From assembly GCA_049323935.1 (NCBI GenBank), contig JBMONN010000004.1, positions 16,486 through 80,485 of the forward strand: a stretch of DNA of 64,000 nucleotides. Direction: 5' to 3'. Shown here in pieces: positions 9,151 through 19,933 of the stretch (the first letter of the stretch is position 1; every line of letters starts with the position of its first letter). The translations under genes were made by a program, and so were the position numbers. Source of the stretch: Thermodesulfobacteriota bacterium. Its GTDB lineage: Bacteria > Desulfobacterota > Desulfobulbia > Desulfobulbales > SURF-16. Under the pieces are notes generated by a model. That model did no database searches. It was not told the DNA's origin and saw nothing but the letters and a program-made list of their open reading frames with translations.

Positions 9151-10578
9151 ATGACACTGGTAAATGGAGAGTGTGTTGTGAAGCGACCCGGATCGGGAAA
9201 AGGACCGCAACGTCTTCTCGTGCGCATCGTCGTCCCTTTCGCCCTGCTCTTTGCCGGCGCCGCCCTCATCTTCTGGCTGCTCTCCTCCTGGCTCATCGTC
9301 CGCTCCCTGCACGATGATCTCCGCCAGCAGATGACCAGAGTCGCCGGCGTGATCTCCCGGGCAAGCTATGTGCTGAACCCGCACATCCTCGCCCAGATGC
9401 GGGATGTCGTTAGTGCCGAGATCATTCTCTTTGACGGCGAGGGGGACATCCTCCACTGCACCATCCCCGGCTGGCAGCAGGCGGCAACGGCGGCCGCGAT
9501 CAGGGAAAAGGGTTTTGTCGATGCGGCCGCGGTCCCGCCGGTCATCGAATTTGCCGGGAGCCGCTATCATGCCGTTATCCAGCCGCTGACCCTGCCGGGG
9601 CATGGCCAGGCCTTTCTCTGTCTCTGGAAGAAGGCGGGCGAGGCCGAACGGTTGCGCTCCCGTATCCTGGCCGCCACCGGCTGGCTGGCGCTCGGCGGCA
9701 TCGTCGTCCTCTCCCTGCTCGGCTATTTCATCGTCCGCACCATCACCCGGCCGCTGGAGGAGCTCGCGCACCTGACCAGCCGGATCGCGACCAACGATTT
9801 CAGGCAGCGGGCAAGGGCGCGGGGCCGCGATGAGATCGCCCTGCTGGCCGACTCCTTCAACACCATGCTCGACCGGCTGCAGGACTATGAACAACAGCTC
9901 GTCCAGTCGGAAAGGATGGCCACCGCCGGGAAAATGGCCGCCGGTCTGGCCCATGAGGTGCGAAACCCCCTGACCAGCATCAAGATGTTTGTTCAGGTGC
10001 TCCTCAACCGGCTGCGCGATCAGCCGGACAACCGGGAGATGGTGGCCGCCCTGCTGCGGGAGATCGAACGGCTGGAGCGGATCATCGACCAGCTCGTCGA
10101 GCGGGCCCGGCCGAGCGAACCGGCCCGACGGCCGGGCGCCATCAACGAACAGCTCACCGAGGTGCTGGCCCTTGCCGGTCCGGCCCTGGAAGCCGCCGCC
10201 GTCACCCTGGAAAGCCGGCTGGCCCCGGACCTGCCCTCGCTCTGCTATGATGGGGAAAAGATGAAACAGGTCTTCTGGAATCTGCTCATCAACAGCCGGG
10301 AGGCGATGGGCAAGGGCGGCGGGATCGAGGTGATCTCGCAGCCCGGGCCCGGCGGGGTCACCATCACCGTTGCCGACAGCGGGCCGGGTATCCCGGAGGA
10401 GGCCATTGAGGAGTGTTTCGCCTCTTTTTACACGACCAAGCCGGAGGGGCTGGGGCTCGGGCTCTCCACCAGCCGCGACATCGTCGAGCGGCACGGCGGC
10501 ACCTTGACCCTGGCCAATCGCCCCGGCGGCGGCCTGGTCGCCACCATCTTTCTGCCCGCGGACAAGGAGGGGGCATGA
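9151..10578 (+). CDS. Sensor histidine kinase (two TM helices, HAMP, HisKA, HATPase); NtrB/AtoS-like
   Basis: HAMP (TRPLEELAHLTSRIATNDFRQR...DEIALLADSFNTML). H-box AAGLAHEVRNPLTSI. N-box FWNLLINSREAM. G-boxes VADSGPGIPEE and GLGLGLSTSRDIV. Start taken at ATG 9151; GTG 9178 is an alternative. Confidence 0.85.
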   Translation: MTLVNGECVVKRPGSGKGPQRLLVRIVVPFALLFAGAALIFWLLSSWLIVRSLHDDLRQQMTRVAGVISRASYVLNPHILAQMRDVVSAEIILFDGEGDILHCTIPGWQQAATAAAIREKGFVDAAAVPPVIEFAGSRYHAVIQPLTLPGHGQAFLCLWKKAGEAERLRSRILAATGWLALGGIVVLSLLGYFIVRTITRPLEELAHLTSRIATNDFRQRARARGRDEIALLADSFNTMLDRLQDYEQQLVQSERMATAGKMAAGLAHEVRNPLTSIKMFVQVLLNRLRDQPDNREMVAALLREIERLERIIDQLVERARPSEPARRPGAINEQLTEVLALAGPALEAAAVTLESRLAPDLPSLCYDGEKMKQVFWNLLINSREAMGKGGGIEVISQPGPGGVTITVADSGPGIPEEAIEECFASFYTTKPEGLGLGLSTSRDIVERHGGTLTLANRPGGGLVATIFLPADKEGA

Positions 10579-11969
10579 GCACCATTCTGGTAATTGATGA
10601 CGAGGAGATGATCCGGCGCGCCTTCAGCGAGTTTCTCAAAGACGAGGGCCACACCGCCCTGCTGGCCGCGGACGGCGAGGCGGCCCTTGTCCTGCTCGAA
10701 AGGCAACGGCCGGACATCGTCTTTCTCGATTACCGGCTGGCGAGCCGGGACGGCCTCGCCCTGCTGCCGGAGATCCGGCAGCGGCTGCCTGGTGCCGCCG
10801 TTATCTTCATGACCGCCTTCGGCACCATGGCGGTCACCATCCGCGCCATGCAGCTCGGCGCCTATGAGTATCTGACCAAGCCCTTTGATCTGGCCCGGGT
10901 CCGCGAACTTATCAACCGTATCCTGACCGGCAGACAGTCCCTGGCCGCCCTCGGCGACGAACCGCCCCCCGCCCTTTCCCTCGACCGCATGGTGGGCCGC
11001 AGCGCGGCCATGCAGGAGATCTACAAGATGATCGGTCTGCTCACCACCCAGGATGTCACGGTGCTGATCACCGGCGAAAGCGGGGTGGGCAAGGAGGTGG
11101 TCGCCCGCGCCATCCACGACAACAGCCCGCGCCGGGAGGCGCCCTTTGTCGCGGTCAACTGCGGCGCCATGCCGGAAAACCTGCTGGAATCGGAGATGTT
11201 CGGTCATGAAGCGGGCGCTTTTACCGGCGCTCTTGCCCGCCGGATCGGCCGTTTCGAGGCCGCCGGCCGCGGCACCATCTTTCTCGATGAAATCGGCGAA
11301 CTGCAGCCCGCTCTCCAGGTCAAACTGTTGCGGGTTTTGCAGGAAAAGAGTTTCGAGCGGGTTGGGGGCAACAGCCCGGTGCCGATGGCGGCCCGGGTCA
11401 TGGCCGCCACCAACAAGGATCTGCATGCCGAGATGGTGGCCGGCCGTTTCCGCACCGATCTCTTCTACCGGCTCTACCTCGTCCACCTTGCCATCCCTCC
11501 CCTGCGACAGCGGCGCGAGGATATTCCGCTGCTGGTCGAGCACTTTATCAGCCGCTTCAACCGGGAACAGGGGCGGGCGGTGCGCGGGGTGGCGGCCGCC
11601 GTTATGCGGACGCTGCTCGACGCGGCCTGGCCCGGCAACGTGCGGGAGTTGGAAAATGCGATCCGGCGGGCCATGGTCCTCTGCCGCGACGACATTCTTC
11701 TGCCAGAATTTTTTGAATTGCCCGACCCGGGCGAGCCGGTAGCCGGTGATGCCCTCCCATTGGCCGCCGCGGCACAGCAGACCTTTGCCGCCCTGCTGGC
11801 GACAAAGGAACGGCCGCCCCAGCTCATGGAGCATCTCGTCGCCATCGTCGAGAAAACGGTGTTGGCGGCGGCGCTGGCGGCCTGCAACGGCAATCAGGTC
11901 CACGCCGCCCAGCTCCTCGGTCTGCACCGCTCGACCCTGCGGAAAAAGATGGCCGATTACGGGCTGTGA
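10575..11969 (+). CDS. Sigma54-dependent response regulator (NtrC/AtoC family; PrsR-like by context)
   Basis: ATGA overlap with the kinase stop. REC domain (ILVIDDEE, VFLDYRLASRDG). Sigma54-interaction AAA+ domain (GESGVGKEVVARAIH, GAFTGA loop in EAGAFTGALARRIGRFE, IFLDEIGEL). C-terminal Fis-type HTH (QVHAAQLLGLHRSTLRKKMADYGL). Confidence 0.9.
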   Translation: MSTILVIDDEEMIRRAFSEFLKDEGHTALLAADGEAALVLLERQRPDIVFLDYRLASRDGLALLPEIRQRLPGAAVIFMTAFGTMAVTIRAMQLGAYEYLTKPFDLARVRELINRILTGRQSLAALGDEPPPALSLDRMVGRSAAMQEIYKMIGLLTTQDVTVLITGESGVGKEVVARAIHDNSPRREAPFVAVNCGAMPENLLESEMFGHEAGAFTGALARRIGRFEAAGRGTIFLDEIGELQPALQVKLLRVLQEKSFERVGGNSPVPMAARVMAATNKDLHAEMVAGRFRTDLFYRLYLVHLAIPPLRQRREDIPLLVEHFISRFNREQGRAVRGVAAAVMRTLLDAAWPGNVRELENAIRRAMVLCRDDILLPEFFELPDPGEPVAGDALPLAAAAQQTFAALLATKERPPQLMEHLVAIVEKTVLAAALAACNGNQVHAAQLLGLHRSTLRKKMADYGL

Positions 11970-12070
11970 GCGGTCGAGACGGCTTTTTTTCTGGGCCCCG
12001 GGGGAGAAAGTTTCCCGGGGCAGGCCGGGAGAAAGGGGCGACAGCATTGTGCGCAGATCTCAATGGATTC

Positions 12071-12086
12071 GGGCGCCGCTTTTGCT
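12071..12086 (+). promoter_or_regulatory. Candidate sigma54 (-24/-12) promoter upstream of the TPR lipoprotein gene
   Basis: GGGCGCCGCTTTTGCT has GG and GC at the exact GG-N10-GC spacing. The -12 region TTTGCT is good. It lies 73 nt before the ATG at 12159. The -24 region is only partly consensus. Confidence 0.3.
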
Positions 12087-12158: not shown

Positions 12159-14459
12159 ATGAAAATGTCATTGCCGACCTTCACCCTTGCCTCTCTTGTC
12201 GTCGCTCTGTTTGTGTTCTGCTCCTGCTCTCCGGACGCCAACAGGAAGGTGGAATTTTATGAAAAAGGACGCGCCAGCCTGCAGGCGAACAACGTCAAGG
12301 AGGCGATCATCGAACTGCGCAATGCCGTGCAGCTTGATCCGAAATATGTCGAGGCCCGCTATCAGCTCGGTCTTGCCTATCTCAGGGATAATAATCCCAG
12401 ACAGGCGTTCGAGGAATTGACCAGGGTCTGTTCGCTTGCCCCACAGCACGTCGATGCCCATCTGCGGGTGGCCCGCCTGCTTTTTGAGGGCAAGCGGATA
12501 GCCGAGGCAAGATCCTTTCTCGACAAGGTGCTCGATGGCGCGGCCGCAAACGAGGAGGCCCAGCTGCTTCTTGCCGATATGGAGCTGGCCGACAATCATG
12601 CCGACCGGGCGGCAGAGGTGATCGACAAGATTGTCGCCAGCAATCCGCAAAGCGAAGCGGCCTTTGCCCGCAAGGCGCAGCTCCTTGCCATCGGCAAAAA
12701 ATATCCGGAGGCCGAGGCGGCGATCAGGCAGGCGATTACCCTTATGCCGGACAATTTCGTCAATCACCAGTTTCTCGTTTCACTGTTGCTGGAGCAGGGG
12801 AAAAGCGAAGAGGCCAAGTCCTATCTCGATCAGTTGACCGCCCGCTATCCGGAACAGGCGGAACCCCTGCTCGGACTGGCGGCGCTGCACATGAAACTGC
12901 ATGACTACGGGCAGGCCGCAGCCACCATCGAACAGGCCCTGTGTCTGCAACCGGGCGAAACCAGGCTGTATCTTCTCCTGGCGGACATCCTGGTGCAGGA
13001 CAAAAAGGCCGACAGGGTTGACAAGACGTTGCGGGACGCCCTTGCCCTGGCCAAGGAGCCGCTCACCATCCGTGCCGCCCTCGCGAATTACCTCTGTGAA
13101 ATGGGCCGTTTTGCCGAGGCAACGGCCGAGGTGGCGATCATCCTGCAAGAGAACAACCGCCACCCCCTGGCCAATCTGGTCCGGGCCCGCCTGTTGCTGC
13201 AGGAAGGGAAGAACAGCGAGGCCCTTGCCGCCCTCGCTGAGTTGATCCAGCAGCAGCCTGACTGGGGTGAGGCCTATTATTACCAGGCCCGTGCCCAGCT
13301 TGGGGCAGGGCGGCAGGAGCTCGCTCATCAGGCGGCAATCCAGGCGGTCAAATTCAGCCCCAGGGACGGCAAAAGCCATCTGCTCCTGGCCCGGCTGCTG
13401 CTCGACCAGGGTGATTTCGCCGGCGCCGGCCGGGAGGCGGCCGTGGCCGGCCGGCTTGATCCGGCAAGCGTAGCGGCGGCAATCATTTACGGCCGCAGCC
13501 TGCTGGGCATGAAGGAGTATGACAAGGCGGCGGCTGTTTTTGAAAAAATCCTTGCCAAACAAGGAGAGAACGCCGAGCTGTTCAGCCTGCTGGGCCAGAC
13601 CCGGGCCGCCATGGGGGACAGGGAGAAGGCGGCGGCCCTCTTTGAGAAGGCGCTCGCCCTGGCGCCTGCTTCGACCAGGGATCTGCAGGCCGTCGCCCGC
13701 ATCGCTCTCGGGCAGGGCAAAAAGAAGGAAGCACTGGCGCGGGTCGAAGAGCAGATTGCCCTGGCGCCGGATCATCTCGACCATCTGCTGCTGCTTGGCA
13801 CCATCGCCCTGGAGGTCCGCGATTTCGGGCGGGCGGTGGAGGCGTTCCGGCGCGCCCGGCAGCAAGGGCCGGAAAAAATCGAACCCTATATCTTGCTGGG
13901 CGATGCCTTGGTCAAATCCGGCCAGCCCGATCTGGCCGCGCAGGAGTTTCAGACCATTCTCGCCAAAAAAACCGACCATATCCCGGCGCTGATGGGCCTG
14001 GCCAATCTCCATGTGCTGCAAGGGAGAAAGCAGGAGGCCCGCGAACGCTATCGTCGCATCCTCTCGCTGCAGCCGGAGCAGCCGATTGCCGCCAACAACC
14101 TGGCCATGCTCATCCTCGACGAGGACAAGCCCGACCTCGGCGAGGCCCTGCGACTCGCCAGCCTGGCCAAGGAAAAGCAGCCGAACAATGCCGCCATCAT
14201 CGATACCCTGGGCTGGGTCCATTACATTCGCAAATCCTATGCCCTTGCCGAGGCGGAGTTTCGTCAGGCGGTCCGTCTCGCCCCGGATAACCCGCTCTTT
14301 GCCCAACACCTCGAGCTGGCGGCCAAGGAGGCGCAAAGTAAAAAGCGGCAGGAGGGCTATGCCAGCGGCCGCGAGCAGTTTGATCCCGCCGGCCTATCCC
14401 TGGAAGGGCAGACAGGCGAAGACAAGGGGAGGCAGGACGAGGTGCCGCGCGGCTGGTAG
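12159..14459 (+). CDS. PrsT-like PEP-CTERM-system TPR-repeat lipoprotein
   Basis: Signal/lipobox-like N-terminus (LVVALFVFCSCSP). The opening segment YEKGRASLQANNVKEAIIELRNAVQLDPKYVEARYQLGLAYL is typical of PrsT, and TPRs continue along all 766 aa. It sits directly after the HK and sigma54 RR and directly before PEP-CTERM genes. Confidence 0.7.
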   Translation: MKMSLPTFTLASLVVALFVFCSCSPDANRKVEFYEKGRASLQANNVKEAIIELRNAVQLDPKYVEARYQLGLAYLRDNNPRQAFEELTRVCSLAPQHVDAHLRVARLLFEGKRIAEARSFLDKVLDGAAANEEAQLLLADMELADNHADRAAEVIDKIVASNPQSEAAFARKAQLLAIGKKYPEAEAAIRQAITLMPDNFVNHQFLVSLLLEQGKSEEAKSYLDQLTARYPEQAEPLLGLAALHMKLHDYGQAAATIEQALCLQPGETRLYLLLADILVQDKKADRVDKTLRDALALAKEPLTIRAALANYLCEMGRFAEATAEVAIILQENNRHPLANLVRARLLLQEGKNSEALAALAELIQQQPDWGEAYYYQARAQLGAGRQELAHQAAIQAVKFSPRDGKSHLLLARLLLDQGDFAGAGREAAVAGRLDPASVAAAIIYGRSLLGMKEYDKAAAVFEKILAKQGENAELFSLLGQTRAAMGDREKAAALFEKALALAPASTRDLQAVARIALGQGKKKEALARVEEQIALAPDHLDHLLLLGTIALEVRDFGRAVEAFRRARQQGPEKIEPYILLGDALVKSGQPDLAAQEFQTILAKKTDHIPALMGLANLHVLQGRKQEARERYRRILSLQPEQPIAANNLAMLILDEDKPDLGEALRLASLAKEKQPNNAAIIDTLGWVHYIRKSYALAEAEFRQAVRLAPDNPLFAQHLELAAKEAQSKKRQEGYASGREQFDPAGLSLEGQTGEDKGRQDEVPRGW

Positions 14460-14584
14460 ACCGGGGCGTTTTTTTTGCAAACGTCATCTCCTGTGCGGCG
14501 GCCTGTCTGGCGCAAGCGGCAGGATGAGCGGGCGGCGCCGAGGGAAGGAGATAAGGATATCGGCATGATTACCCATGCGGCAAA

Positions 14585-14607
14585 TTCCGTTTTCCGGGAA
14601 AACGGAA
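14585..14607. promoter_or_regulatory. Perfect 11-1-11 palindrome TTCCGTTTTCC-G-GGAAAACGGAA (candidate enhancer-binding-protein site / UAS), unit 1
   Basis: Read directly from the sequence. It overlaps a second inverted repeat, CCGGGAAA-N9-TTTCCCGG (14595-14619). It lies ~175 nt upstream of the sigma54-like promoter at 14781 and is conserved (1 mismatch) at the same relative place in unit 2 (19195). Confidence 0.5.
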
Positions 14608-14780
14608 CGGTTTCCCGGATTTTTCCGGCGTGCTATTGGCTGAAAACCGGCCGCCGGGGCGATCGGCCCTTCCGCTACGCTGTGGTGGCGGAGGTGTAAC
14701 CTGTTGCAATACGGATTAAAAAATGGTCGTCCGCCTGGAAAGTGGCAAGGAGGATCGATGTTGTTCTTTTTGGAAGAAAA

Positions 14781-14796
14781 CGGAATGGATTTTGCA
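14781..14796 (+). promoter_or_regulatory. Candidate sigma54 promoter of the PEP-CTERM gene, unit 1
   Basis: CGGAATGGATTTTGCA has exact GG-N10-GC spacing and a strong -12 TTTGCA. It lies 70 nt before the ATG at 14866. The same 15-mer recurs at 19389-19403 in unit 2. Confidence 0.45.
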
Positions 14797-14865
14797 AAAA
14801 AAAATTAAATAATTTGTGCCTGCCAGTCTGTAACAACACGAATACCTGACAAAAAGGAGACAAAA

Positions 14866-15540
14866 ATGAAAAAACACAAAACTGGGATACTGGCAACGGC
14901 CTTGGCCCTGGGCATCACTGCCTCGCCGGCCATGGCAGCCATCGATCTGTTCGACTGGGCGTTTTATGTTGATGGAACCACATATGAGTTGACGGCCGGA
15001 GATTCGATGCCGACCTCGGGCACCTTGGTCGACGGCCTCGGCAGCCTTACCTGGTCGACCAGTGTTGCCGGCAGTCACACCTTTCTTGCCTTTTTCGATC
15101 TGGAGATAGACGAAGCGGTCAATACCTATTTTAATGAATACGGCGCCGCCCATGGCAGTGCCGCAGCCGGTCAATCCTGGGAGATCGATGAGCCTGGCTA
15201 TCTGTTTGGCGATATTTATAACAATCTGCTGGCCGGGTCGCTGGATAACAGCAATGGTGTTCCGGTAAGTTTTCCAGATGACGTCTCCTTTGCCCTGGGC
15301 TGGGATTTTACCCTTGGCGTCGGTGAGACGGCGACCATCGTCCTCAACCTGACCAACGCCGCGCCGCAGGCCGGTTTTTTTCTCAGCCAGACTGATCCTG
15401 ACAGCGCTGAAAGTGTATATTTTTCCAGCACCCTGCGGACGAGCGGTGAGCCTATTCCCGAACCAGCCACCATGCTGCTGATGGGGACCGGGCTGGCCGG
15501 CCTCTTCGGGGTGGGCCGCAAACGGATGAAGAAGGCGTAA
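14866..15540 (+). CDS. PEP-CTERM sorting-domain protein (small secreted protein)
   Basis: Signal peptide MKKHKTGILATALALGITASPAMA. C-terminus ...SGEPIPEPATMLLMGTGLAGLFGVGRKRMKKA carries a PEP motif, a hydrophobic helix and a basic tail. RBS AAAGGAG upstream. Confidence 0.85.
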   Translation: MKKHKTGILATALALGITASPAMAAIDLFDWAFYVDGTTYELTAGDSMPTSGTLVDGLGSLTWSTSVAGSHTFLAFFDLEIDEAVNTYFNEYGAAHGSAAAGQSWEIDEPGYLFGDIYNNLLAGSLDNSNGVPVSFPDDVSFALGWDFTLGVGETATIVLNLTNAAPQAGFFLSQTDPDSAESVYFSSTLRTSGEPIPEPATMLLMGTGLAGLFGVGRKRMKKA

Positions 15541-15558
15541 GGCGGCAGGATGGCGCTG

Positions 15559-15578
15559 CCGTTTTCGGGGGAAAACGG
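15559..15578 (+). other. Intergenic hairpin CCGTTTTC-GGGG-GAAAACGG between the PEP-CTERM gene and the large gene (unit 1)
   Basis: 8-bp perfect stem with a 4-nt loop. It shares the CGTTTTC/GAAAACG core with the upstream palindrome. It recurs at 19834-19853 with one mismatch. No T-tract follows it. Confidence 0.4.
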
Positions 15579-15652
15579 GAGGAGCCGACTGCGGACGTCG
15601 AGCATGACAACAAACGGGAGAAGTGAATAACACGGAAGATAAAGGGGGAAAA

Positions 15653-18169
15653 ATGAAGAATCGAAAAGCCTACACCATTGCGGCCCTGACCGGGGTCGGC
15701 CTGCTGCTGTCGGCCTCGCTGGCCTCGGCGGCGGTGAGCAGAATACTCTGTGTGCCCTGGCAGGGGAATCCGAATGCCCCGCATACCGCCATCAGTGGCC
15801 AGGCGGTGAAGTTGACCGCTGTCATTTACGGCGATGCGACCGGCGGCTCGGTCAGTTATTCCTGGGATTTTCAGGACGGCACCGCGCCGGCCAGCGGCAC
15901 CATTGCCGTCCCCGCCAACGGCGTTTACAACCTGGAGGTGACCCACACCTACAGTGCAGCGGTGAACACCCCGTTCACCACCACCTTGAGTATGGACGGC
16001 AAATCCGACACCTATAAGATCCTCATCGCTCCGGACAACAACGACTCCAAAACCAACATCGCCATCGACAAGGCCCTCTGGTACCTGCATAAAGACATGG
16101 TGCGGACCACCGCCGGTTCACCTGCGGTGCCGGCCGGCTACTGGAACGACTATTCCTACTATGTCGGGCGGTCCGGGGCGCCGGTCTGGGCTTTCGAGGT
16201 GCAGGGGCATCTGCTCAGCGTGGAGGCCAATCCCCTGCAGCCGCTGGAAGACCCCTATGTCGATGATGTCCAGCGGGGCATCAACTACATCCTGAGCAGG
16301 ACATATGCCCAGAGCATGAACGCCCAGACCCATGGCCATCCGGAGGATTATGACGGCGACGGCGATGGTGACGAGGGCAACGGCTATGGCCTTGTTGCCT
16401 ATTATGACAGCGGTCATACCAACTATGAGCAGGGACTTGCCATGGGAGCCATTGCCGGTTCCGGGGCGCCGGACGCTGTGGCGGCCACCGGCCAGGCGAC
16501 CTATGTGCTCGGGCGCACCTATCGGGACATCGTCCAGGATATGGCTGACTGGTATGGCTGGAGCCAGATCGACGGCACCGCTTTTCCGCCGAGCGGCGCC
16601 CTGGGCGGCTGGTATTATACGGCGGCGAATAATACGGGATGGAACCCGAATTATGGCGACAACTCCGCCTCCCAGTGGGCCTATATCGGCCTTGAAGCAG
16701 CCCAGAACAATTTCGGCGCGGCAATTCCCACCTGGGTGAAGACCAGGCTGGCCGGCTATCTCCACAACCAGATCGCCTACAACAACCGGGGCTTTGTCTC
16801 CTATCGCTCCGGCTACTCTTGGTATAGTGACTTTACCACCCCGAACGTCTGTCTGACCGGTGGCGCCCTGGTCGGCATGAAGCTGGTCGGTCAGAGCCTC
16901 TACGATGCCCAGAACGGCGCCGGCAGCTACAGCACCGATCTCAATCTGGCCACCACCTTTCTCGGCAACAACTGGCTCGGCCAGGCAAATCGATGGACGG
17001 AGAACTGGTACGGCCACCGCGCCTATTACACCATGTACGCCATCATGAAGGGCCTGCGGCTGCACAGCCTCGACTCGCTGCCCGGCACCCCCGGCACCGC
17101 TGACTGGTATGGCGATTATGTCGGCGTCATGCTGCCGGATCAGTATGCGGACGGTCACTGGCGCGGCACCGGCTGGATGGATGGCTACATCGTCAACGAC
17201 ATGGGGACCGCCTTTGGCGTGCTGATCCTCACTCCGAGCGTCTTTTCGCCGCCGCCGGTGGCCTGTTTCAACGCCAACCCCAATCCCGGCTACATGGACG
17301 TGCCGATCTCCTTTGATCCGTCCTGTTCGTACCATTCCGACGGGACAAAATCCATTGTCCTCTATGAGTGGGATTTCGACAACGACGGCGTTTATGATGT
17401 GACCTCGACCACCCCGGATGTCCAGACATTTACCTGGGATGACGCCACCTATGACCTTGGCACCTATCCGGTCACCCTGCGGGTAACCGATGACTCGGAC
17501 GACCCGGTAACGGATACCGCCACGATTGATGTCAATTTGACCCTGCCGCCTCATCCGCCGGTGGCCGATGCCGGTGGCCCCTATATGACCACCCAGTGCG
17601 GCGCCGACTCCCTGACGCTTGATGGCTCCGGCTCCTTTGATATTGACGAGGGGACCAGTGAAAGCGGCAACCCGCCGTTTGATACCATCACCGACTGGGC
17701 GTGGGATCTTGACAACGCGCCATGGGATTATGTCAATGAGAGTGGTGAAAGCGTTGCCCTGAGCGCTGCCGACATTGCCACCTATTTCACCTTGGGTGAG
17801 AAGCAGATCGGCCTGAAGGTAACGGACAACACGGCAGCGGCCTATCCGGGCAGCCAGCAGCCCGATCTGACCGGTGAGGGATTTGACACGGTTACCGTCT
17901 ATGATGACTGCCTGTGTACCCTGAGTGCCCGTGCCAAGCTGAATAAGGTGCAACTGGTCTGGGCCAATACCGGTGCCGCCAGTTATGACATCTATCGCAG
18001 CACGATCGGGCCGAACAGCGGCTTCAGCCTGATTAAGGATAACCTTGTCACCAGCTACGCCACCTATCTGGACAGCGGTTTGACGATCGGCACCCCCTAC
18101 TGGTATCGGGTCGTTGACAGCAATGGCTGCGGTTCGGTAGCGGTAAAAGTTGTTCCGACAACCCGCTAA
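15653..18169 (+). CDS. Large secreted multidomain protein: PKD-like + alpha/alpha-toroid-like (prenyltransferase/terpene-cyclase-like repeats) + PKD-like x2 + FN3-like C-terminus (paralog A)
   Basis: RBS AAAGGGGGA precedes the ATG at 15653. Signal peptide MKNRKAYTIAALTGVGLLLSASLASA. PKD-type signatures: SYSWDFQDGT, YEWDFDNDGVYD...VTLRVTDD, and WAWDLDN...GLKVTDN. The central Trp/Tyr/Gly-rich region (ALWYLHKD..., NSASQWAYIGLEAA...) resembles prenyltransferase/squalene-cyclase repeats. The C-terminus (VQLVWANTGAASYDIYRS...YWYRVV) resembles FN3. Confidence 0.8.
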   Translation: MKNRKAYTIAALTGVGLLLSASLASAAVSRILCVPWQGNPNAPHTAISGQAVKLTAVIYGDATGGSVSYSWDFQDGTAPASGTIAVPANGVYNLEVTHTYSAAVNTPFTTTLSMDGKSDTYKILIAPDNNDSKTNIAIDKALWYLHKDMVRTTAGSPAVPAGYWNDYSYYVGRSGAPVWAFEVQGHLLSVEANPLQPLEDPYVDDVQRGINYILSRTYAQSMNAQTHGHPEDYDGDGDGDEGNGYGLVAYYDSGHTNYEQGLAMGAIAGSGAPDAVAATGQATYVLGRTYRDIVQDMADWYGWSQIDGTAFPPSGALGGWYYTAANNTGWNPNYGDNSASQWAYIGLEAAQNNFGAAIPTWVKTRLAGYLHNQIAYNNRGFVSYRSGYSWYSDFTTPNVCLTGGALVGMKLVGQSLYDAQNGAGSYSTDLNLATTFLGNNWLGQANRWTENWYGHRAYYTMYAIMKGLRLHSLDSLPGTPGTADWYGDYVGVMLPDQYADGHWRGTGWMDGYIVNDMGTAFGVLILTPSVFSPPPVACFNANPNPGYMDVPISFDPSCSYHSDGTKSIVLYEWDFDNDGVYDVTSTTPDVQTFTWDDATYDLGTYPVTLRVTDDSDDPVTDTATIDVNLTLPPHPPVADAGGPYMTTQCGADSLTLDGSGSFDIDEGTSESGNPPFDTITDWAWDLDNAPWDYVNESGESVALSAADIATYFTLGEKQIGLKVTDNTAAAYPGSQQPDLTGEGFDTVTVYDDCLCTLSARAKLNKVQLVWANTGAASYDIYRSTIGPNSGFSLIKDNLVTSYATYLDSGLTIGTPYWYRVVDSNGCGSVAVKVVPTTR

Positions 18170-18200
18170 GGCAGCACGGCGCCTGAAGAGGCGACGTATT

Positions 18201-18241
18201 CAACACGCCGGCGATCGACGACCGCCGGCGTGTTGTCTTTT
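18201..18241 (+). terminator. Rho-independent terminator after paralog A
   Basis: AACACGCCGGCG-(loop)-CGCCGGCGTGTT stem followed by GTCTTTT. Confidence 0.65.
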
Positions 18242-18269
18242 CCCCGCTAAACATCTTTTTTTAGTGGCC

Positions 18270-19106
18270 ATGGCAACCTTCCATTCGTTTTTCCGATTTC
18301 TTCCCAGGGGAAGCAGTCTTGCCGCCGTCATAGCCGTGCTCAGTCTGCTTTTTGTCTTTCCAGCGTCAGGGGTGGCTGCCGAGGCGCCGTCCTTTACTCT
18401 CAAGGTGACTGACTCCCGCATCGACCTTGTGGCCAACGAGGCGCCACTTGGTGAAATCCTCACCGCGATTTCCCGGGAATTCCGGCTTACTTTACGGGCC
18501 GCAGAGCTCCCTGGTGAGCTGACGAGCTGCCGGCTGGCCTCTGTTCCCCTTGAACAGGGGCTGGAGAAACTACTGGAGAGCTGGAATTATGCCTTGCTTT
18601 ACAAAAAAGAGGGTCAGGGCCGCGCCCTGCCGGACATTCTCTGGGTTATGAATCGCAATCCGAACCGTGTGGTTGTCGAGAGGCGAGGGGAGCCCGGGAG
18701 TCAGGGGGGGGCAAGGGAGCAGCTGCTGCCGCAGGAAGAGGGTGGAAAAAGTTATCGGAAAGAGGATATCGCCGCAGTCTTTGCCGATGGCGATACGGTG
18801 TTGCTCGACATTGACGTCCGCCCGGCCGATGGCTCGGAATTTGGCGAAGCGGCGTCGCAGCCCATGCCTGAGGAAGAAGAGCGGCCGCTGGGAATAAAAA
18901 TCACCCGGCTCGCCGAAACCTCGCCGATCAATATGATTGGACTGCGGGAAGGGGATGTGGTGAGGGATGTGAACGGGGCTGCAGTGGGGTCAGCCGCAGA
19001 TCTGGTTCGCTCCCTGGCAGGAGCCGCAACGGGAGGTGTGACGACACTCCGCATCGAACGATGGCGGGATGGACAGATGGCCCCGCTTTATCTGGAAATG
19101 CGATAG
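18270..19106 (+). CDS. Single-pass membrane protein with STN-like (secretin/TonB N-terminal-like) domain and C-terminal PDZ domain (unit 1)
   Basis: MATFHSFFRFLPRGSSLAAVIAVLSLLFVF (TM/signal). The segment IDLVANEAPLGEILTAISREFRLTL...VPLEQGLEKLLESWNYALLYKK follows the STN/N0 pattern. C-terminus GIKITRLAETSPINMIGLREGDVVRDVNGAAVGSAADLVRSL is a PDZ signature. Confidence 0.7.
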   Translation: MATFHSFFRFLPRGSSLAAVIAVLSLLFVFPASGVAAEAPSFTLKVTDSRIDLVANEAPLGEILTAISREFRLTLRAAELPGELTSCRLASVPLEQGLEKLLESWNYALLYKKEGQGRALPDILWVMNRNPNRVVVERRGEPGSQGGAREQLLPQEEGGKSYRKEDIAAVFADGDTVLLDIDVRPADGSEFGEAASQPMPEEEERPLGIKITRLAETSPINMIGLREGDVVRDVNGAAVGSAADLVRSLAGAATGGVTTLRIERWRDGQMAPLYLEMR

Positions 19107-19194
19107 GCGGGTTGACCATCCGGGTCCGTTGTCCGAAAATGACCAGGGCTGGCGCAAAGCAAAGGGATGTCGTGATGTGTATCCAGTCGGGAAA

Positions 19195-19217
19195 TTCCGT
19201 TTTCCGGGAAAGCGGAA
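19195..19217. promoter_or_regulatory. Palindrome TTCCGTTTTCC-G-GGAAAGCGGAA (unit 2 copy, 1 mismatch)
   Basis: Same relative position as 14585-14607. The flanking GGTTTCCCGGA(C/T)TTTTCCGGCGTGCT is also conserved. Confidence 0.45.
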
Positions 19218-19387
19218 CGGTTTCCCGGACTTTTCCGGCGTGCTTTTTGCCGAAAGAGGGATCGTGCCGGCCGGCCCTTCCTTCCACTCTGTGGTGGTTG
19301 GGGTGTAACCTGTTGCAATACGGATAAAAAAATGATCGGCGTGGGGAAGAAAAGGGCGGATGGCGGCAACTGTTCTTTTTGGGCGCC

Positions 19388-19403
19388 GGGGAATGGATTT
19401 TGC
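19388..19403 (+). promoter_or_regulatory. Candidate sigma54 promoter, unit 2
   Basis: GGGAATGGATTTTGCA has GG-N10-GC spacing and is identical to unit 1 except at its first base. Confidence 0.4.
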
Positions 19404-19439
19404 AAATTCAGTTTAGATAATTTGTTTCACAGTCTGCGA

Positions 19440-19815
19440 CGGCACGAATGCCTGACAAGAATAAAGGGTCCATAGCTGGGATTCCGTCAATGGCCCTGGG
19501 CCTCATTGCCTCGCCGGCCATGGTAGCCATCGAAAATAACTTCGGCTGGGCGGGTGAAGACGTCTCCTTTGCCATGGGCAGGATTTCACTCTCGGGGGAG
19601 ACGAAACGGCAACCATTGCCCTGGATCTTTCCGATATAATGCCAGAGGGGCTTTTATCTGAGCCAGACGGGCCATGAAAGTGGCAAGATGTTTATCTTTC
19701 CAGGGCCCTGCGGACGAGCGGTGAGCCAATTCCCGAGCCAGCCACCATGCTGCTGATGGGGAGCGGGCTGGCCGGCCTCTTCGGGGTGAGCCGCAAAAGA
19801 ATGAAAAAGGGATAA
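19440..19815 (+). pseudogene. Decayed paralog of the PEP-CTERM protein gene
   Basis: Homologous to 14866-15540 at both ends: ...GCCCTGGGCCTCATTGCCTCGCCGGCCATGG... and ...CTGCGGACGAGCGGTGAGCCAATTCCCGAGCCAGCCACCATGCTGCTGATGGGG...AAAAGAATGAAAAAGGGATAA. The RBS and start region are mutated, ~300 nt of the middle are missing, and the frame is broken. The PEP-CTERM tail is no longer in frame with the 63-aa ORF at 19448. Confidence 0.7.
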
Positions 19816-19833
19816 GTCGGCAGGTTGGCGCTG

Positions 19834-19853
19834 TTGTTTTCGGGGGAAAACGG
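19834..19853 (+). other. Intergenic hairpin TTGTTTTC-GGGG-GAAAACGG (unit 2 copy)
   Basis: Counterpart of 15559-15578, with one stem mismatch. Confidence 0.3.
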
Positions 19854-19933
19854 GGAAGTCGCCTGTGGTGCAATATCAATGCGGATGAAAACGAATGGGG
19901 AGAAGTGACGAAATGCAGATAAAGGGGGAAAAA

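Follow-up and report, generated by a model that had tools for sequence, protein, structure and literature searches.

A TTCC(S)GGAA-type palindromic box as a likely enhancer of sigma-54-dependent PEP-CTERM promoters in a Desulfobulbales-like bacterium

The DNA stretch analyzed here (the window, 64,000 nucleotides from a Thermodesulfobacteriota bacterium) corresponds to C4:16486-80485 of a 3.74-Mb genome with 58% G+C. It contains, at 14585-14607, a perfect palindrome with two 11-nt arms around a single nucleotide, TTCCGTTTTCC-G-GGAAAACGGAA, which is likely to be the strongest of three helically phased sites of the TTCC(S)GGAA type that together act as the upstream activating sequence (UAS) of a sigma-54-dependent promoter of a PEP-CTERM gene. 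A first-pass annotation had paired the palindrome with a downstream -24/-12 element as PEP-CTERM enhancer and promoter, and this link to PEP-CTERM regulation holds: the core of the palindrome is enriched upstream of PEP-CTERM genes and the pair is conserved at orthologous loci. The feature acts like a PEP-CTERM box, yet it lies outside that motif family.

In many environmental bacteria, PEP-CTERM proteins and exosortases shape the cell surface as well as flocs and biofilms, and, to our knowledge, the only control circuit described for them is the proteobacterial PrsK/PrsR box. The box reported here would be a second, sequence-unrelated enhancer for this gene class, and would show that the layout of sigma-54 promoter, distant enhancer and single-gene operons can persist through an exchange of the activator and its site.

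The box array, its promoter and the duplicated unit

The palindrome (site 1 of the array) is composed of four TTCC/GGAA half-sites around the core TTTTCC-G-GGAAAA (6-1-6). Overlapping it is the inverted repeat CCGGGAAA (14594-14601)-N9-TTTCCCGG (14611-14618), and both features are present in the sequence as first annotated. The right arm of this repeat falls within site 2, TTTCCCGGA (14611-14619), whose centre lies ~19.5 bp from that of site 1, and next comes site 3, the half-box TTTTTCCGG (14620-14628), with its centre ~11 bp from that of site 2. The three centres, at ~14596, 14615.5 and 14626.5, are thus separated by about two helical turns and one. Palindromes of this kind, perfect over 11-nt arms around a 1-nt spacer, are rare: the genome has eight, a block-shuffled genome one.

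The promoter-like element CGGAATGGATTTTGCA is located on the plus strand at 14781-14796, with the GG at 14782-83 and the GC at 14794-95, and its spacing of exactly N10 agrees with the first-pass annotation. From the start of the palindrome to the GC there are 209 nt, which places the palindrome centre near -199 relative to the -12 GC. The 16-mer ends 70 nt ahead of the ATG of the target gene (14866-15540, plus strand), which encodes a secreted protein of 224 residues with a PEP-CTERM sorting tail (TIGR02595 at residues 197-220). A sigma-54 promoter is indicated by the GG-N10-GC signature, by a -12 element of the TTGCW type (TTGCA) and by the presence of rpoN in the genome, which also contains an exosortase gene. 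No sigma-70-type promoter was found in 14300-15700, and no terminator-like site was found at the locus. From the position of the -12 element, transcription is predicted to start near 14807 (about 14805-14810), giving a leader of ~60 nt.

A copy of the arrangement, unit 2, is found further downstream in the window. Its array (19195-19238) begins with the palindrome TTCCGTTTTCCGGGAAAGCGGAA at 19195-19217, which carries one mismatch, and continues with sites 2 and 3, while its sigma-54-type promoter GGGAATGGATTTTGCA lies on the plus strand at 19389-19404, one nucleotide away from the earlier placement at 19388-19403. The palindrome copy had been correctly located, and the equal spacing claimed for the two units is correct to within 2 nt (209 vs 207 nt from palindrome start to GC). 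The PEP-CTERM gene of unit 2 is decayed, and the first intact gene downstream of the promoter copy is that of a 1013-residue protein at 19895. The ~300-nt leader and gene start of both units form one segmental duplication, and the recurrence in unit 2 therefore provides no independent evidence; such evidence comes instead from the core motif across the genome and from other genomes at orthologous loci.

The ortholog of window 18150-19900 in G003, a genome of the same genus (L002, C249), has ribosome-binding site, ATG and PEP-CTERM gene all still intact, and the product of this gene shares 91% of its amino acids with that of unit 1. In the present genome, the unit 2 gene has therefore decayed only recently. 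Site 2 is identical in unit 2 and in G003, and site 3 is also kept in both.

As the ~300-nt region is present just twice in the genome, a repeat or mobile element was rejected as an explanation. The complete 23-mer was likewise rejected as a genome-wide site: exact copies, or copies with up to three mismatches, are confined to units 1 and 2 in a whole-genome scan, and matches with four or five mismatches fall in coding regions.

Distribution of the box in the genome and among relatives

Of the 11 PEP-CTERM genes, 9 have the shorter core TTCC[CG]?GGAA in their 400-nt upstream region, as compared with 87 of 3021 predicted genes (2.9%; Fisher p=6e-13), so that the enrichment expected upstream of other PEP-CTERM genes was borne out for the core. 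Seven of the genes preceded by it lie on other contigs. Nearly all of the nine other PEP-CTERM leaders, when inspected, contained palindromes resembling TTTTCCGGAAA(A), frequently in two or three copies, with GG-N10-GC elements such as TGGCACGACAAATGCT and TGGCACGGATGATGCT downstream of the boxes. A GG-N10-GC site is positioned 85-150 nt ahead of the ATG in 8 of 10 PEP-CTERM genes, and the boxes are found 100-190 nt further upstream. The word TTTTCCGGAAAA has 12 exact copies in the genome and 97 with at most one mismatch, where base composition predicts 0.1 and 4, while every other palindrome of the W4-S4-W4 form occurs no more than twice.

The association also appears when promoters are taken as the starting point. 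Intergenic candidates for sigma-54-like promoters number 134 in the genome; the core lies between -40 and -260 in just 12 of them, seven of which belong to PEP-CTERM genes. Of the remaining five, one looks real (C35:201318) and two that were inspected proved to be chance cores inside coding sequence. The site on C35, outside the window, consists of the boxes TTTTCCGGAAAA-N9-TCTTCCGGAAAA at 201402-201434, located 84-105 nt upstream of the near-consensus sigma-54 promoter TGGCACGCGGCTTGCT. This promoter precedes the gene of a cysteine-rich protein of 140 residues, the one gene outside the PEP-CTERM class that convincingly belongs to the box regulon. At another PEP-CTERM gene outside the window (C42:166780-166850), the box and the sigma-54 promoter are separated by a (TTCTC)n-like simple repeat of ~55 nt, which could allow the enhancer-promoter distance to vary.

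In related genomes, 50 further PEP-CTERM loci were retrieved, 41 of them with a gene model, and 33 of those had a sigma-54-like site. An unbiased 8-mer comparison was made between the 240 nt upstream of 42 PEP-CTERM sigma-54 sites (9 own, 33 from relatives) and 1231 background windows. The most enriched 8-mer was TCCGGAAA, found in 21 of the 42 regions and in 24 background windows (p=7e-25). TTCCGGAA, the box word itself, was present in 18 regions and 13 background windows, CCGGAAAA in 23 and 57, the site 3 word TTTTCCGG also in 23 and 57, and the site 2 word TTCCCGGA in 9 and 23. The latter and TTCCGGGA (noted as TTCCGGGA/TCCCGGAA) are +1 variants, both enriched upstream of PEP-CTERM promoters, as is the outer-arm word TTCCGTTT. 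The core as such is present in 26 of the 42 promoter regions and in 0.2 +/- 0.4 after shuffling, and the exact cores have their centres 101 to 196 nt upstream of the -12 GC. Alignment of the sites yields WWTTCCGGAAWW, accompanied at a distance of 5-6 nt by a weaker CGGA(A) half-site. Of this type of box, the 11-1-11 palindrome studied here represents the variant with four half-sites and full symmetry.

Orthologous loci in which the flanks have diverged keep both the box and the promoter. They come from G003 (the unit 2 ortholog, 88% DNA identity), from G002 of the same genus and from G009 of another genus. The core at this locus is invariably of the 6-1-6 form, TTTTCC-G/T-GGAAAA; it is seen as CTTTCCGGGAAAC in G002 and as TTTTCCTGGAAAA in G009, and site 2 takes the form TATCCCGAA in G002. 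The promoter starts 85, 86 and 85 nt ahead of the ATG in the own genome (G000), G002 and G009, respectively, with the GG and TTGCA invariant. In G028, which belongs to another family of the order, the array TTTCCGGATTTCCGGAATCGGTTTTCCGGAAAA is located 95 nt upstream of CGGCATGTTTTTTGCT.

Exact boxes average 4.7 per genome in the 31 PEP-CTERM-positive genomes (1.5 for a reversed-pattern control) and 1.7 in the nine PEP-CTERM-negative ones (control 1.3), and these means are descriptive only because related genomes are not independent. The box serves nearly all PEP-CTERM genes of the own and of related Desulfobulbales-like genomes and thus defines a surface-protein regulon. Searching for it is a simple way to predict such regulons in sulfate reducers that have not been cultured, and in their relatives.

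Between the array and the promoter, an A/T-rich block at 14692-14725 is conserved in unit 2 and in G003. It contains the IHF-like core CAACAGGTTA on the minus strand (14697-14706) beside an A-tract, and G002 has TCAACATATTA with an A-tract. The corresponding pattern CAA-N4-TTR, a motif low in information, is found in the box-promoter interval of 13 of the 42 PEP-CTERM promoters, compared with 4.5 +/- 2.1 when shuffled. IHF may bind at 14697-14706. Other conserved blocks found between box and promoter are not common to different PEP-CTERM genes.

By analogy with established sigma-54 systems, the sites would be bound by the dimeric Fis-type helix-turn-helix (HTH) domain of a sigma-54 enhancer-binding protein, which would oligomerise on the array. 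Looping of the DNA, aided by an IHF-like bend near 14697-14706, would then allow the activator to touch the sigma-54 holoenzyme waiting in its closed form at the -24/-12 element ~190 bp downstream, and the promoter would be opened through ATP hydrolysis. The same arrangement in unit 2 would drive the large exoprotein gene.

Several observations weigh against this interpretation. An exact core is missing from 2 of the 11 own PEP-CTERM genes and from about 40% of those of the relatives, and the main palindrome core is degenerate in G003 (TTTTTTGGGAAGG), though sites 2 and 3 are kept there. In its -24 half, the local promoter departs strongly from the consensus (CGGAAT in place of TGGCAC). Some exact boxes, for instance those at C24:52502, C27:51598 and C4:239542, are not accompanied by a sigma-54 promoter, and no one activator family has a distribution that matches that of the box in every genome tested.

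Comparison with known systems

In the classical sigma-54 enhancer layout, known from NtrC-glnAp2, NifA-nifH and XylR-Pu, a UAS is followed by an IHF site, which is frequent and not obligatory, and by the -24/-12 element. The locus described here resembles this layout: its palindromic sites are in helical phase 100-200 bp upstream, its promoter is of the GG-N10-GC type, and the A/T-rich stretch separating them has an IHF-like sequence that may be a site of this kind. Protein binding and looping are predicted for the locus on this basis. Activator boxes of such systems include TGCACC-N5-GGTGCA for NtrC, TGT-N10-ACA for NifA and TGTAAA-N6-TTTACA for TyrR. The local site matches none of these, nor any other activator box known to us, and a literature search for the motif string returned eukaryotic matches only and nothing bacterial.

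PEP-CTERM genes with long leaders were described by Haft, Paulsen, Ward and Selengut (2006; PMC1569441), who reported a 17-nt motif 1 ending in TTTACA, located 63 +/- 11 nt upstream of the sigma-54 motif, and a motif 2 corresponding to the sigma-54 -24(GG)/-12(GC) element at a mean of 71 nt before the start codon. That PEP-CTERM box co-occurs with PrsK/PrsR/PrsT, as reported in the same study of 13 species (PMC1569441). In Desulfovibrio vulgaris, PrsR (DVUA0057) was shown by DAP-chip to bind upstream of PEP-CTERM genes (PMC3333781), which establishes this type of regulation.

The similarities of the present system to that of Haft et al. are in the architecture. The PEP-CTERM genes form single-gene operons with long leaders, an upstream and sometimes repeated activator motif is followed by a sigma-54 motif ~70 nt from the ATG (70 nt here, against the mean of 71), the motif stands in front of most PEP-CTERM genes, and a PrsT-like TPR gene is located nearby. 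The motif itself is different: it is TTCC(S)GGAA with A/T flanks rather than a 17-mer ending in TTTACA, and is placed 100-200 nt upstream of the promoter rather than about 63 nt. Neither TTTACA nor TGTAAA is found in 14460-14866, and the two are not enriched at PEP-CTERM promoters (5 of 42 vs 2.9 +/- 1.6 in shuffles), so that the earlier identification of the palindrome with the PEP-CTERM box of that family does not stand. The Desulfobulbales-like lineage is not among the 13 species, and the present genome encodes no PrsR or PrsK above the cut-off. The best match to the PrsR model (TIGR02915) scores 420 bits against a cut-off of 502.6, and the best match to PrsK (TIGR02916) scores 126 against 300, covering the kinase core only. 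TPR proteins similar to PrsT (TIGR02917) reach 344 and 361 against 312, passing only with summed segments.

Kazakov et al. (2015) found that the Desulfovibrio activators DVU0110 and DVUA0057 share one binding motif (PMC4641369). This is a precedent for an exopolysaccharide/biofilm enhancer motif that is read by non-orthologous activators, although the organism and the motif differ from those considered here, and a shared motif of this kind would account for the lack of one activator family that follows the box.

Alternative explanations and candidate readers of the box

Upstream of the palindrome are the genes of a HAMP histidine kinase with two transmembrane segments (9151-10578), of an NtrC-type sigma-54 activator (10575-11969, plus strand) containing receiver, AAA+ (with GAFTGA) and HTH_8 domains, and of a PrsT-like TPR protein (12159-14459). 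The target gene is followed by the genes of a secreted protein of 848 residues and of a PDZ protein, and then by the second unit. The first-pass annotation assigned the palindrome to this neighbouring regulator, likening it to PrsR, and regulator, kinase and TPR protein would then form a PrsK/R/T-like module that controls the two adjacent units. We consider this unlikely, even though the order kinase-regulator-TPR-PEP-CTERM resembles that of Prs loci and is kept in G002, and the regulator carries the GAFTGA and HTH_8 elements of an enhancer-binding protein. With 374.4 bits, the regulator is well below the PrsR cut-off and ranks only tenth for PrsR among the 32 activators of the genome, the NtrC and AtoC models scoring higher for it, and the adjacent two-transmembrane HAMP kinase is not PrsK. 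The absence of both the regulator ortholog and the unit from G001, of the same genus, indicates that the two co-occur within the genus. Among the 39 relatives searched, however, a close ortholog (78% identity, syntenic) is present in G002 only, and genomes without the regulator keep the box and the promoter. The best matches in G009, G001, G016, G005, G030, G028, G007, G038 and G011 are 37-45% identical with no reciprocal best match, which by sequence comparison is the level of paralogs. In G009, the 6-1-6 palindrome and the promoter precede the orthologous gene, while the contig carries no activator gene and the genes upstream are unrelated, which argues against the neighbouring regulator having been the ancestral reader of the box or being its general one. 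In favour of the assignment, the local core is of the 6-1-6 form and not of the common 6-0-6 form; against it, the same core stands ahead of the seven PEP-CTERM genes on other contigs. Within this genus the regulator could conceivably bind the box too, but the reader is probably another protein. Most likely it is not PrsR either.

Somewhat less probable again is that TTCCGGAA is the operator of some other kind of regulator than an enhancer-binding protein, such as a repressor or co-activator tied to biofilm or c-di-GMP signalling, with the true activator binding elsewhere in the region. Several exact boxes near gene starts are without a sigma-54-like promoter and therefore leave room for such a regulator; that no activator family fits the box distribution and that further conserved blocks lie between box and promoter would agree with it as well. 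Those blocks, however, are the ones that different PEP-CTERM genes do not share, while a position 100-200 bp upstream of the -24/-12 element, multiple helically phased copies and a near-exclusive link to sigma-54-type promoters of one gene class are the usual signature of a UAS. It is highly improbable that the palindrome acts as RNA, as a hairpin, terminator or attenuator in read-through from the TPR gene, or that it is functionless and its conservation only mimicked by recent duplication. A perfect palindrome is capable of folding, and all five substitutions in unit 2 and G003 lead to G-U on the plus strand, which has a chance of ~1 in 32 and leaves the reading unchanged. The folding of 14570-14640 is nevertheless unremarkable (z = -0.88), its minimum-energy structure does not use the 11-1-11 stem, there is no U-tract or terminator-like site at the palindrome, and Rfam has no match for the region. 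Moreover, the commonest form elsewhere is a 6-0-6 palindrome, for which a useful hairpin is impossible, and in G002 and G009 the outer-arm pairing is lost with the TTCC/GGAA letters retained. Units 1 and 2 are indeed paralogs and not independent observations, but mere recency is excluded by an enrichment that spans unrelated PEP-CTERM genes and genera.

If the array is a UAS, as we consider likely, its reader would be sought among the sigma-54 activators. The best current candidate, on evidence that is still weak, is a PAS-AAA+-HTH activator encoded at C38:138-1643, a protein of 501 residues with a cysteine-rich PAS insert that falls into no specific NCBIfam family. It has the best phylogenetic profile and the best gene neighbourhood among the candidates. 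Orthologs are present in 25 of the 39 relatives; 23 relatives have both the activator and PEP-CTERM proteins, seven have PEP-CTERM proteins only (three of these genomes being incomplete), two have the activator only and seven have neither. An activator of this type is located ~2-4 kb from a box-bearing PEP-CTERM gene in at least ten genomes of six genera, and is always directly followed by a sigma-54 promoter and a PilZ-like gene.

In the present genome, this cluster (C38:138-3700, outside the window) comprises the PAS activator, a sigma-54 promoter after its stop codon, the PilZ-like gene and a box-bearing PEP-CTERM gene. The PilZ-like protein has 214 residues and the signature RxxxR...DxSxxG. 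The PEP-CTERM gene of the cluster is inverted in G000 and G002.

An ortholog of the C38 activator was not found in G028 despite the clear box array of that genome, and no TTCCGGAA is present within 260 nt of the promoter that follows the activator gene. For these two reasons the protein stays a candidate only. When the possible readers are compared, the largest share, somewhat short of an even chance, is given to another activator or to several activators, and a clearly smaller one to the PAS activator; the neighbouring regulator and a protein from outside the sigma-54 activators are each rated unlikely, to about the same degree.

Activator profiles were obtained from the sets of G009, G028, G007, G038 and G011, scored by reciprocal best matches, and most of the 32 activators of the genome have orthologs in G009. 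Two activators, C18:38090 and C42:41115, fitted these five test genomes, yet they are present in only 14-15 of 40 genomes, PEP-CTERM-negative ones included, and were rejected. The short activators C21:56968 and C5:16096 were set aside for their cytochrome bd and flagellar contexts. Boxes beside activator genes were also considered as a sign of autoregulation, and nothing convincing was found.

It is conceivable, if rather doubtful, that in Desulfobulbales-like bacteria PrsK/PrsR has been replaced by a cysteine-rich-PAS activator that reads TTCCGGAA arrays, with the local regulator being a lineage-specific add-on to the same enhancer. If true, these bacteria would couple the presentation of exosortase-sorted proteins on their surface directly to c-di-GMP signalling and to the sensing of redox state or metals. 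The segment 14580-14630 provides a short, well-defined DNA bait for finding the activator.

Two further elements are located next to the genes discussed above. In the region before the TPR gene (11996-12086), a hairpin CCCCGGG-N11-CCCGGGG is accompanied by the sigma-54-like sequence GGGCGCCGCTTTTGCT (12071-12086); this element is not conserved in G002, because the gap between the regulator and the TPR gene is only ~49 nt there. A second hairpin, CCGTTTTC-GGGG-GAAAACGG, which has no U-tract and is not a TTCCGGAA box, occurs at 15557-15578 and 19834-19853, ~17-20 nt past the PEP-CTERM stop codon and ahead of the large gene. It may set the expression ratio of the small and the large gene through processing or partial termination.

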